From Macrostomum lignano (lineage: Eukaryota), in the NCBI GenBank assembly GCA_002269645.1, contig NIVC01005227.1, forward strand, positions 1-19,945: a DNA stretch of 19,945 bases, given 5' to 3'. Of this stretch, positions 14,698 through 19,945 are shown one piece after another. Under the pieces are notes generated by a model. That model had not been told where the DNA came from. It searched no databases and saw nothing but the letters and a program-made list of their open reading frames with translations. The position numbers and the translations under genes are program-made. The stretch's first letter is position 1. Each line of letters starts with the position of its first letter.

Positions 14698-17600
14698 AAT
14701 GCCCGAACGGTAGACTGTTGATATTGTCATCAAAAATGAATCGCTTGTTATCTGCACCTGACAGTCCAATCTTCTTTTGCTGAATTGTGTGAATAATGTG
14801 GTTTTTAGATTGTAGCTTTGAGAACTCATGAGATGTCTTTTTGTTGCAATTCAAGGCGTCTCTGTATTCAGCTTCATTAATTTCCTTCCTAACCACACGT
14901 TTCGGAATTCCCTTTGATTTTTTAATTGGGTCTGACGACTCACATTTTACAAAATAGGACTTTGCTCTCAACCCAATGAATTCAGTGATTATGTCACCAG
15001 CAATCTCGTCCTTCATTTTCCCAATCACTTTCTTGTTAGTAGCGTCAAACACTTGATCGCCATTCTGTGTCCTGCAAGATTCATCATACTCAGACAAGTC
15101 AAACAAATCTTTTTGCTGCAGCATGTCCTGATAAATGTCTTCTGTTTGAATGTCCATAATAAAACTGTCTGTGTCAGTGTACAAGAGTTTCATTTTATCC
15201 TTGTACTGCTGCTTCATGCCATAGAAGAACTGGTACATCAGACGTTTTGATTCGTCGAGTACAGTGACACCTGTATAGATCGGCTTGCGCAGCGTCACCT
15301 TGGTTTTGTAAAATATGATCACACCTAAGTAGCTATTAAAGATATGGAGTTCTTTGAACGTTGGCTTTGACATATTTGCCTGAATAACAGCAGGCTCTGA
15401 TGAGGTAACAAGTTTCAGGTTTGTTCTTTTCCGCTCATTCTCAAGAGTCTTGCCATAGACAGAGTTGTTGGCTAACTTAAAAAGGTTCTTGTCAAAGTCG
15501 TTGGTTGCTTTGGTCCTAAACTGGGTGTTCTTATCAATGTAGGGTTTCATCCACGCTTCCTCTGTAAATGTAAGAGCCCTGTGAACTTTGGTGACCCTGC
15601 AACCAAGTGAGATAAAATACTGAAGCAGTTTGTAATGGATTTTGTAACGTGTCTTGTTGTTTAGATTCTGTGTTAGTTTCTCTGTATGTTCTTTTTCTGT
15701 TCCTGACAGGCGCCAAGTTCCATTATTATCATTGGGAGTTTCGATTATTTTCGGGCACTTGATGTTCTCTGGGAAGGGTGGAAAGTCAGAGAAATAGTCG
15801 TGAAGCTCTGGTGGAATGTAAACATCAACTTCGTAAATGGCAGCCAATGAAAAGTCCCACTTTAGTTCTGATGAGGGTAGCCATCGAAAATCTCTAACTG
15901 GAAGATCTTGACTCATCGCCCAACCGTAGAGATTATTAGCGTCCAAGTAAGTAATGTAGTTTGAGGGCTGCTCCTTATTGTAAGATTCAATGTAGGGATT
16001 GTTTGCTTTTGCATACCTGTTAACGCAAATTGAGATTCCCCCTCGCTTTGACGATTCGACAAAATTGTACATGTCAATGTCTGTAAGAAGTTCAATGTAC
16101 CAATCTGGATCTTGATCCCATTTCATTTTAAGCAAAGATTCCCAGCTAGTGGCAGGGAGAGACACATAATGTGCTGGATCGAGGCCATATGCTGTGTACC
16201 AGGTGTATCTGAAGGTTTCAAACACATCGGCCAGCAGAAACACATCTGTGTAGAGGTAAAGCAGGTGATACTGGAAGAAGTTTTGACAATTAAAGTAACT
16301 ATAGACATGCTTCGCGTGCTCATAGTCTGTCAGAGATTCCAGAGTTTGTTAGCTTTGAAAAGAACTTCTCCTGTGGTGGTAAACCTTCTTCAAATACGTG
16401 ATACCCAGTAATATTTTCATAGGGGTAGAAGCCTTTCTTTCTTAAAAGTTTAAATGATTCATCAGTGTTGTTAATTTTACTTGCAAACATCTTTGTATTT
16501 GTACATTGTTCATCTTTTAGATTCTTGCTTAGTTCGTCTAGACTGGCAGCTAGAAGTTGATATGAATCCTTCAGTCTTATTTTACCTGTACCCGAATTAT
16601 CCTGTTTAATATCAACGCACTTAAACTTCTCCTTGTTCTCTGCGATGCAATCAAGGTGTATGTCTGGAATCATGCCGATTTTTTCAACTATTAAATGCAT
16701 GTCATAGTTCTTTGCGTTGTGACAAAATATTGTTAGATCATGAATGTTCGATTTTAGCTTTAGATTACAGGTGTTATGCGCTGCACCTCTAAATTTCCCA
16801 GTATAGTGGCAGTGGTCCCTAACGGTGGGGGTTTTTAATATTAGTGCAAGTTAAATGTTTCCTGCAGATGTGGCAATGAGTTGCTGATAGGAAATTGCTT
16901 TCATCCTCCTCAGTCATCATTATTGGAACAGGTTGAAGGGTGCTAATCACTTTTTGCAACTCTAACATTCTGGCAATAAACTGCTCCACACACTGCTCTC
17001 CAAAGAAATAATTATACTCAACAAGTCCTTTTGTATTAATAAAGACATATGTTACTGAATTGGGGATATGTTTTTGAGTTTGAGTTTGTTTTTGAGTTGG
17101 AGTTTGTTTTTGAGTTGGAGTTTGTTTTTGAGTTGGAGTCTGTTTTTGAGTTTCTGGCACGATTGAGCATTCGAAATCAGCATATACAACAAATGGGAGC
17201 TTCTCCATCTTATGATAATTCTTAAACCGGAGATACTTCTCTTCAGCTGAAGGAAGAGAGCAGTTTGTTGGGTGATCCTCGCATGATAATTCATGCTCTG
17301 CTAGTTTTTCAAAGCGTTCAGGTCCACTGTAATGCTTAAGGCACAAGCGGCAGATGGCAACAGCCTCGTGATGATTATTCAACTGTTTGTGAATGAGTCT
17401 TGAAAGATCTTTAATCCAAACATAGTGAGCCTCCTCTAGTAAATTACCAATCACTAGAAGATCCACTTCAGTCCGCCTTTTCCCCTCGGGATCTAAAACG
17501 TCTTTGCTACATCTGACGGTTGAACTTTCTCAGTTTTTTCACTCCACTCAAAGACTGTGATTCTAATTTTGTTATTAAACACTTCTTCTAGCTTTGGGAT

Positions 17601-18570
17601 CTGAGAGATCGCCAAGCCTCCTTTGTCAAACCTGATTCCCTTCTTTTCGCATTCGATGAGATAGTAGTTGAAATAATTTTGATAATTTGAGGTTCTTTCG
17701 GGGTGGTGAGGGACACTATCATGAAGAAGTGCAGAAAGAACTGCCCATAGAGCACAGCAGTTGTCTTTATTTTTAACATTTATGCAAGCTTTTTTCCGGC
17801 TAGCTTGTGTGGGAGCTCTATATAAGAGGAGGCTTTAAGTGGGTCATATTTCATGACCATGACAGTCGCTCTTTGAATCCCTCCTACGACCCATCCGGAA
17901 CCTCTGGATGTAAACGCTTCAATTTTCTTATTGACATCTTGAAGGAAAGGATCCAGTGTGTCTGTAGGGGTGAATGGCTTGCCTTTGTTGTCATGTAATA
18001 CTCGAGATGCTCAGTGGGTTTTGCAGGCATATAAAATGCAATCTTGAATGATATCTGTAGTTTAAAGGTCTTGCGTGATTTGAGTGTGTGATCAACAACT
18101 GATTGGATGCTGTCTTTATAGTCGTAGATGTTTGCGGTGGTATCCTTAATTGGGATTGTGTACTCTATGTAATGTTCTGTAAACTTCCTCTGTGCAAAAT
18201 TAATCTCTTCAATGGCAAGCTCCGACTCTTTTAAATGGATTAATTGCTCTAATTTCTCTTGTTCCTGCTTATTTTGTGGGTACTTTGCTTTTTCACCAGT
18301 GAGAGTTTCGTATTTGTTAATTAAGTTGCGACTCCTCTCTTGGTGTTCCTTTGCAGGATTTTTTATAGGCGCATACTGGTTGGATTTTAATTGGTTGATG
18401 ATTTCCAACTGTTTTTCATAGCTTCCCAGGTGACCGGGGTCGGTGTTGAACCTTTGTTTGCATGCTTCTCTTAGTAAATTACTTTTGTCTTGAAATGAGA
18501 CGCCTTTTGAAAAATATTTGTTGACTAAATCTTTTGCTGGATTAGCTTTTGGCATTTTTTTCTCTAACAT
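14669..18570 (-). pseudogene. polB: Protein-primed family B DNA polymerase (terminal-protein region, 3'-5' exonuclease with endonuclease VII-like insertion, polymerase), ~1300 aa, split by 5 frameshifts
   Basis: N-terminal motifs SRGSGW, YDPLKASSYIELP, CINVKNKDNCC and WAVLS; Exo I YADFE; CHIC/DHCHYTGKFRGAAHNTCNL; Exo II HNAKNYD; Exo III YLYTDV; Pol A YLDANNLYGWAM; Pol B KLANNSVYGK; Pol C YTDTDS; C-terminal DNKR. Frameshifts at ~17980, 17790-17795, ~17518, 16827-16831 and ~16328. Confidence 0.97.
17070..17153 (-). repeat. In-frame 18-nt tandem repeat (~4.6 copies) inside PolB, encoding (TQKQTP)n
   Basis: gtttttgagtt(t/g)gagt(t/c)t units lie between the Exo I motif YADFE and HIPNS. Confidence 0.95.
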
Positions 18571-18677
18571 AAAAAAATTTTGAGGGTGACCACCCTGATA
18601 GAAAAGTTGAACTGTTTCTACATCCTATAAGTAGCGTTAGGTTTATGAAGCTGGATAAAGTGGGGTTTTAAACCTCA

Positions 18678-19132
18678 TCACATGCGCATTATTGTAAACC
18701 CAGCATTGTGCAGTGTCATGATTGCTTTGACAATGTCAGACTTGCTTACAGAATTTTCATGCTCACAATCATCACAATCATCAAAATCAGGGCAACCATC
18801 TCCTGCCTTAATTGTTATACCTTTGTCTCTTGCAATCTTTTGCAATTCTAGCTGTGTGAGCTCTATCATTCCCAGCTTTAACAGCAGTTGCTACACCTCC
18901 AGCTACACCACCTGCGGCACTTACAGCGCCTGCAATAATCGGATAAGAGCTGCTAATGGTAGGATTCCTCCTGACTTTTCATCTGTGATGCTGTGTCTTT
19001 GCTCATTACACTGAAGTATTTGCTGCGTGGGATCGATTTTTACTTTGACACCTTTAATTGATATAATACTGGTTTCTTTGATTCAATGATTTTATTGAGT
19101 TTATTGATGGTTCTGGTTTCAATCTTTGTCAT
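18678..19132 (-). pseudogene. Adenovirus protein X-like ('GasderminX'-type) membrane-active precursor, ~152 aa reconstructed, 3 frameshifts
   Basis: ATG 19132 (TAAAAAATG). The stitched frames give ...TDEKSGG-ILPLAALI(P)IIAGAVSAAGGVAGGVATAVKAGNDRAH(T)QLELQKIARDKGITIKAGDG...AIMTLHNAGFTIMRM. Compare human adenovirus pX, MRGG-ILPLLIPLIAAAIGAVPGIA (recalled, not searched). Confidence 0.75.
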
Positions 19133-19148
19133 TTTTTATTTTAATATT

Positions 19149-19945
19149 TTAATTAATTTCTGTGTCAGCTGGTATCACTAGGAGTTCAGCTCTAGTGAAT
19201 GACCGCGTGGGGGATTTAGGGTTAAAAGCCTGAGATAAAAAGTAATAGTCACCGGAGTCGGAGGTAAAATGTCTGTCTATTTTATGTACATCAAGGCTGA
19301 AGTATGGATCTGTAGCTCTTCTTTTGGTGTCCTTCTCTAGCTCTCCAGGTAGATATAAAAAGCGTAGAAACTCAGAGTTTGTCAGTATGTATGGTGATTC
19401 AACTCCTGGAAGCTTAGGGTAGTTCGAGGTGTCTGTTCTATGAAATGACTTAAGTTCGACAGTGTCTTGTTTAATTGCATGGGATGGTTTCAATCCAGTC
19501 ATGCGCGTGACTTCATTGTTCAGTTGCTCTATAACAGTGGGGAGCCGGTCTGTCCATTTTGAATAGTACTGACCACTTTTTAGTTTCAGCTCTTCAGCTG
19601 TCTGCTTAGTGAATAGCCTCTTGGCTAGAGTTAGATTGAATCTTTCCACAAAAGCCTGGTCTCTGTGTAGCTCAGTTTCTTCCATAGCGAATTTTTGTGT
19701 CATGCGTATGTAGAAGTGATTTCACTGCACCCATGAATTCTTTACCCGGGTCCGTCATAAAGATTTTAGGGTAACTTAGGGGTGAGTTTTTATAAATATC
19801 TTGGAGGGCGGCTGCAACTGCTTCTGACTTTTTCGTCTTAAGCGCGTCTCGCTTCCTTATATCTGGAGGCAACGTCTGTAATTGTAAGAGCATACTTGTA
19901 GCCCGAGTCATTGGGAGAAACAGAAGATCTGCTTGGTGCGCCTCA
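19149..19945 (-). pseudogene. int: Retroviral-like DDE integrase of Polinton type; 5' part lies outside the window; at least 3 frameshifts
   Basis: HQADLLFLP (first D), YKYALTITDVASRY, FMTDPGKEF (second D), FVERFNLTL (E), and the Polinton-type C-terminus LYLPGE...RRATDPYFSL...SFTRAELL. Frameshifts at ~19914, ~19846 and ~19680. Confidence 0.95.

Follow-up and report, generated by a model that had tools for sequence, protein, structure and literature searches.

Passages of PMC8502044 and PMC8097293 describe alpha-type adintoviruses and Polintons as elements that carry a PF03175-type PolB, an rve integrase, a packaging ATPase and adenain, together with a double jelly-roll capsid gene and pX and PLA2-like genes, and that have AGTAG termini and 6-bp target duplications. 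An element of the Polinton/adintovirus type is present in contig NIVC01005227.1 (C5227) of Macrostomum lignano, one of 5,269 contigs of a 764-Mb assembly (GCA_002269645.1). The window analyzed here is that entire contig, 19,945 nucleotides (nt) in length. The element occupies it from position 6,924 onward, and the contig end falls inside the integrase gene. The alpha adintovirus class is marked by a PF03175-type PolB with an N-terminal OTU domain; of these, PF03175 matches the PolB of the element.

The genes at the right-hand side of the window are broken by small frameshifts, and for these the closest described counterpart is an assembly artefact. In a bacterial study, portions of PMC8812927 report residual frame-shifting indels of 1-2 nt, deletions for the most part, that persist in repeats in which polishing with short reads is unreliable. 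A second paper, PMC12007338, is listed on residual indel errors of long-read assemblies as well. The window likewise displays small frame-shifting indels, mostly deletions, in repeats. However, as compared with what is described there for small genomes, the homopolymer bias found here is modest and a gradient toward contig ends is the stronger signal. The frameshift pattern is a known kind of assembly artefact, and the element is of the ordinary Polinton/adintovirus type. Among papers on frameshifts or assembly errors in Polintons, none was found to address this point by its title or the start of its abstract.

The explanation that we regard as highly probable is that the window contains one insertion of a young Polinton/adintovirus-type family, in which ten of the eleven frameshifts at 16,320-19,945 are very likely errors of the consensus sequence, and in which a few lesions shared between contigs likely leave the copy defective. 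Feature coordinates are in Table 1.

To define the breaks, the window was compared with 39 stretches that have other copies of the element; 27 are colinear over 14.6-19.9 kb, and 12 were dropped as rearranged or truncated. Left-hand genes were compared with 19 further left-hand stretches. A break was scored where the window length differs from the modal length by a number that is not a multiple of three. Eleven coding frameshifts are found at 16,320-19,945: five in PolB (near 16.33, 16.83, 17.52, 17.79 and 17.98 kb), three in pX (near 18.85, 18.94 and 19.07 kb) and three in the integrase (near 19.68, 19.84 and 19.91 kb). Ten are of 1 nt and one is of 2 nt; seven leave the window shorter and four longer than the mode. 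With one break in the major capsid gene and two in the membrane gene, the total is 14. A first-pass annotation, made from the sequence alone, had arrived at the same counts for PolB, pX, integrase and hexon and at one or two for the membrane gene, and had correctly described the indels as mostly deletions. Its description of nearly all of them as 1-2 nt applies to all eleven at 16.3-19.9 kb but not to the capsid break, which is 8 nt. The runs it named (T6, G5, GG, GG and GGG) are present, except that the difference near 17,518 adjoins the GG and lies outside the run.

The state seen at each break is shared with only 0-1 of the 27 copies, and programmed frameshifting was rejected on this basis. 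Of the window-only coding breaks, 10 of 11 lie within the last 3.6 kb (P=5e-5), which places the clustering that was noticed at first pass beyond chance. Eight of ten window-only breaks are in runs of at least 2 and six of ten in runs of at least 3, with 21% of bases in runs of at least 3 as background. Over all rows, 102 of 170 one-base gaps (60%) are in runs of at least 2, compared with a background of 47%, a modest bias. The claimed absence of in-frame stops is borne out, with none among 1,686 codon columns of the window, and 1,285 codon columns of PolB keep one phase across copies. All nine short PolB and integrase motifs looked for are also present, in agreement with the annotation; we take these to be the catalytic motifs. 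For a single copy, the absence of stops has a P of 0.008-0.2 according to the indel:substitution ratio assumed, and with P up to 0.2 a stop deficit was rejected as proof.

Two other contigs represent the same insertion, and they separate most of these breaks from the locus. C2789 matches the window from base 1 across the junction to 16,498, where C2789 ends (99.3-99.7% identity), and its origin from the same locus is strongly supported. C2038 starts at window position 7,542 and matches through 19,945 (99.1-99.4% identity); beyond the element it has DNA that matches contig C1319, and that it represents the same locus is well supported. C1319 is an empty-site allele: it includes the left flank and the target site but no element, and it matches 623-6,924 at 98%. 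A second empty unit is found further along C2038, thus the flank itself is duplicated. The window and C2038 have 16 coding substitutions in common that are absent from every other copy. Ten of the eleven breaks of 16.3-19.9 kb (four in PolB, three in pX and three in the integrase) are missing from C2038. Beyond 16,620 there are no substitutions between the two contigs in 3,314 columns, yet nine frameshifts are present in the window only. In C2038, an unaltered frame of 458 amino acids (aa) spans two of the breaks of the window, and its alignment to an adintovirus PolB is a single piece (E=2e-49). Where all three contigs overlap, at 7,542-16,498, odd-one-out events comprise 77 indels and 30 substitutions, in contrast to 9 indels and 46 substitutions between the empty-site allele and the window flank (Fisher P=9e-12). 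Most of the disagreement among the three contigs consists of 1-2 nt indels.

Indels are also concentrated at contig ends. Odd indels in C2038, per 1.5 kb from its start, number 21, 9, 5, 3, 1 and 1 (rho=-0.99, P=0.0003), and in C2789, per 1.5 kb toward its end, 2, 1, 4, 7, 2 and 13. The window has 4.3 odd indels per kb at its start, which is host DNA, 0.5-0.6 in the interior and 2.7 in the last 3.6 kb; 19 of 26 are in end zones (P=6e-6) and 9 are at 623-2,700. For these densities three sites that agree with the family were left out, and three non-coding sites, unchecked against the family, were kept. Mutations would not be expected to track contig ends, whereas consensus quality does, and the indels are therefore read as very likely consensus errors. 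The annotation had proposed unpolished long-read consensus in repeats. Consensus errors account well for the ten breaks missing from C2038, but the emphasis on repeats is incomplete: since host DNA at the contig start has the same excess, the contig end matters as much for the window. Low read support near contig ends would allow deletion-rich long-read errors to persist, and polishing would fail within dozens to hundreds of copies that are 92-99% identical, as reads from other copies would map there. At 12 of 16 three-contig substitution sites, one letter occurs in no more than 2 of the 26 other copies and its alternative in at least 22, and the pairing of contigs shifts from site to site. 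Misplaced reads would also explain these flips between rare and family letters, with a different subset in each contig. At 14600-16498 of the window, rare insertion letters are swapped for the family letter at a different subset of sites per contig, which would fit the entry of reads from other copies into the consensus.

A minority of the lesions have a different distribution, and three of the 14 breaks occur in every contig that covers them. The capsid break is a length difference near 9,960 that measures 8 nt in the window and C2789 and 6 nt in C2038, where it sits near the error-rich start; it is found in none of 13 other copies. The longest Met frame of the capsid gene is 360 aa in the window, whereas 8 of the 13 others have one of 428 aa. 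Being shared by all three contigs, or too large for a consensus slip, this break is likely real. One membrane-gene break is present in all three contigs and in one of five other copies, and the other in the window only. Whether the shared membrane-gene break and the shared PolB break near 17.98 kb are real appears about evenly balanced in each case; at the latter, one common indel stands beside the 16 common substitutions, a natural ratio. Just beyond the window, the integrase of C2038 shows a gap of some 65 nt, which none of the 26 other copies share. The element then ends, about 580 nt past the window, with its right terminal repeat missing. No such repeat was found in the C2038 stretches examined, up to about 61 kb. 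The flank resumes about 170 nt beyond the empty site. A right junction with the same target site has no match in the genome, a result that the truncation seen in C2038 explains. Both the integrase gap and the loss of the right end are likely real: they are too large for a consensus slip, and errors in C2038 are few at that distance from its start.

The family to which the insertion belongs was examined throughout the assembly. A search with 16,320-19,945 yielded 43 matches, which come from 40 of the 371 candidates, the full-length ones 92-99% identical, and the mean distance among copies is 2.6%. The 28 rows contain 238 frameshifting events, of which 187 are one base short, and one frameshift site recurs in 10 of the rows. 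In-frame stops number 7 in 46,614 codons, whereas 35-105 would be expected under neutral decay. Among the private substitutions, 139 are silent, 176 missense and 5 nonsense, the expected shares being 24%, 72% and 4%. The resulting ratio of about 0.4 indicates that the copies diverged mostly under selection. As assembled, 0 of 39 stretches have an unbroken PolB frame, some of the stretches being truncated. Equal 6-bp flanks are found in six of nine copies in which both 6-mers were read (15 pairs tried); two have unlike flanks and were taken as misjoined, and the third is unclear.

Several observations weigh against consensus error as the source of the ten breaks, or against the shared lesions as real. 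The gradient in C2789 by itself is not significant (P=0.15). Over the 28 rows, frameshift count is weakly related to distance from the contig end (rho=-0.32, P=0.09), with a mean of 9.9 frameshifts near a contig end (n=15) vs 6.8 far from one (n=13); as this is not significant, such distance was rejected as the only cause for the family as a whole. Multi-copy HSP70 genes are mostly clean, 17 being unbroken and 5 split, and have about 0.13 breaks per kb vs 1.68 in the element. A poor consensus genome-wide was rejected for this reason, and the indel excess is thus peculiar to contig ends and the high-copy family. Contigs C2715 and C5199 have 7 of their 19-20 frameshifts in common, and these may be inherited. 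C2038 might itself have been drawn toward the family state at its indels, since at several sites of 14.7-16.6 kb it has the family letter where that of the window is rare; beyond 16,620 its substitutions show no pull toward the family state. C2789 and C2038 are both off-frame at two sites where the window is not, therefore sharing between contigs is no proof of a real break. The integrase gap and the lost right end are seen in one contig, C2038.

A separate set of data comes from contigs of four public short-read-type runs (2 samples, 2 studies; library unrecorded), none from the assembled individual; no RNA run was among those listed as having the sequence. Three of the runs show the alternative length at all 11 window breaks, and the remaining run does so at 10 of them. 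Apart from these breaks, a single indel that reaches 10% is present among those listed, in one run. However, the runs are without the locus's own substitutions, and run X2 has zero depth for the window letter at 6 of the 11 listed. Thus the run data describe the family state only, and not the locus.

The suggestion at first pass that the virus may be intact, which in its strong form takes all breaks as errors, is improbable. It draws on the breaks missing from C2038, on the two sites at which two contigs do share errors, on a right-hand junction that is seen in one contig only and on the existence of misjoined copies elsewhere. It would nevertheless have to account for a capsid difference found in three of three contigs and no other copy, for an integrase gap that is far from the error-rich start of C2038, and for the missing right repeat and target-site junction. 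In the part of PMC8097293 that gives the definition, an "intact" Maverick has unbroken open reading frames (ORFs), both terminal repeats and a target duplication. Here the left end is present and the right end is absent in C2038, and the core ORFs are interrupted by the capsid break, the C2038 integrase gap and the shared PolB break. Thus this copy falls outside the definition as worded there, and it is probably not intact, with about 11 false breaks and up to 5 real lesions.

A history in which the three contigs represent true haplotypes or duplicated chromosomes, with indels that are real, recent mutations of neutral decay, is very improbable. There are many near-identical contig pairs in the assembly, several frameshifts are common to some copies, as in C2715 and C5199, and the substitutions among the three contigs are transition-rich and often silent, all of which would fit such a history. 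It fits poorly with nine indels and no substitutions beyond 16,620, when by another count the empty-site allele has 11 indels to 64 substitutions; mutation would also have to track contig ends, and the stops are too few.

A host process that targets the element with small deletions (indel-biased inactivation) is barely credible: it could be invoked for the lack of an unbroken PolB, for the mean of 6.8 frameshifts far from contig ends, for HSP70 genes about 13-fold cleaner and for the recurrent site, but contigs of one insertion disagree, two contigs with a common right flank have only 1 frameshift in common, of 5 and 8, the same excess occurs in host DNA at the contig start, and the public runs show only the single additional indel among those listed.

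Table 1. Features of the window (contig C5227), with strand where assigned.
Feature	Position	Strand	Remarks
Host flank	1..6923		Ends in 6-bp target site; C2789 99.7% identical, same junction
Left terminal inverted repeat	6924..7780		Starts AGTAG; inner edge approximate; matches opposite end of other copies
Probable minor capsid protein, 296-aa open frame	7939..8829	-	Assignment from position beside capsid gene
Major capsid (double jelly-roll) gene	8823..10120	-	PF21738 E=4e-5, 23.4 bits, below cut-off 27; broken
Packaging ATPase, open	11858..12697	+	PF04665 E=9e-7, above cut-off
Membrane-protein gene (name from first-pass annotation)	13544..14209	+	2 breaks; no Pfam match
Adenain-type protease, open	14214..14618	-	PF00770 E=1.6e-4, above cut-off
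Protein-primed PolB	14669..18570	-	5 breaks, giving six pieces; PF03175 E=1.2e-6, above cut-off on one piece
Contig-end zone	16301..19945		10 window-only indels; 2.7 per kb
Shared PolB break near 17.98 kb	17970..17990	-	Window and C2038; same length in 0/26 other copies
pX gene	18680..19130	-	3 breaks; PF05829 E=4.6e-7, above cut-off, scored on unaltered C2038 frame
rve integrase	19149..19945	-	3 breaks, cut by contig end; PF00665 E=1.4e-10 on unaltered C2038 frame

PolB is 42-47% identical to full-length relatives, the best being 47% among the 120 hits listed, and the relative at 42% is named as an adintovirus PolB (Corynactis coral adintovirus). Among 7,987 relatives scored, 5,576 longer ones have E<=1e-50. 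The N-terminal PolB pieces had no Pfam match in the profile search, and the two integrase pieces of the window by themselves matched no Pfam profile. The frame at 7939..8829, also without a Pfam match, is unbroken in the window by comparison with 14 other copies. A PLA2-like domain (PF08398 E=4e-14) is encoded by a 157-aa frame directly beyond the window end in C2038 (L013:5678-6148), on the strand opposite to the integrase, and this frame is separate from the pX frame. The PLA2-like and pX frames are two here and flank the integrase, whereas the relevant passages of PMC8502044 describe one PLA2X gene.

Length variation is found in several parts of the element. An 18-bp tandem repeat within PolB, at 17069-17152, forms a block of 10-82 nt among copies, and its length changes are multiples of three in 25 of 28 rows. 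In the integrase, at 19429, there is a 42-nt in-frame length polymorphism, 12 of 27 copies being like the window and 14 longer. A 385-aa frame at 10145-11302 has no full-length match of at least 70% in the 19 other left-hand stretches, and the central part of the element seems to differ from copy to copy. The left terminal repeat contains an 8-bp tandem array of about 11 units (7578-7666). In the host flank there are a GA-rich low-complexity tract (1580-2270) and a fragment of a retrotransposon-type aspartyl protease (5696-6151; PF13650 E=6e-4, below cut-off).

Other contigs with family members, and the HSP70 set, display further irregularities. The most frameshifts (19-22) are in L025, L029 and L047, several common ones being in pX and the integrase; these may represent a defective sub-lineage or shared reads. 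Contigs C3917 (L033/L070) and C3080 (L036/L072) have a common right flank, with a matching 6-bp left flank in C3080 only, and C3917 looks joined from two insertions. In C975:120930-135415 (L027, L028) two inverted element arms with the same match statistics meet within PolB, either as a fold-back artefact or as a true inverted duplication. For HSP70, at least 17 intronless matches of full length are present; many of them lie on pairs of nearly identical contigs, a sign of redundant haplotypes or of duplicated chromosomes.

Overlapping contigs of one insertion provide a cheap internal test that separates false from real breaks. Broken frames in high-copy elements of this assembly are not readable as decay, nor is a lack of stop codons readable as intactness. 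From the mean distance of 2.6%, the purifying selection and the empty-site allele, it is more probable than not that the family consists of young, probably still mobile, capsid-encoding Polintons, in at least 40 copies, that look wholly dead mainly through assembly. If this is true, surveys that score elements as "intact" from the open frames of assemblies of this kind would overlook active adintovirus families of animals.

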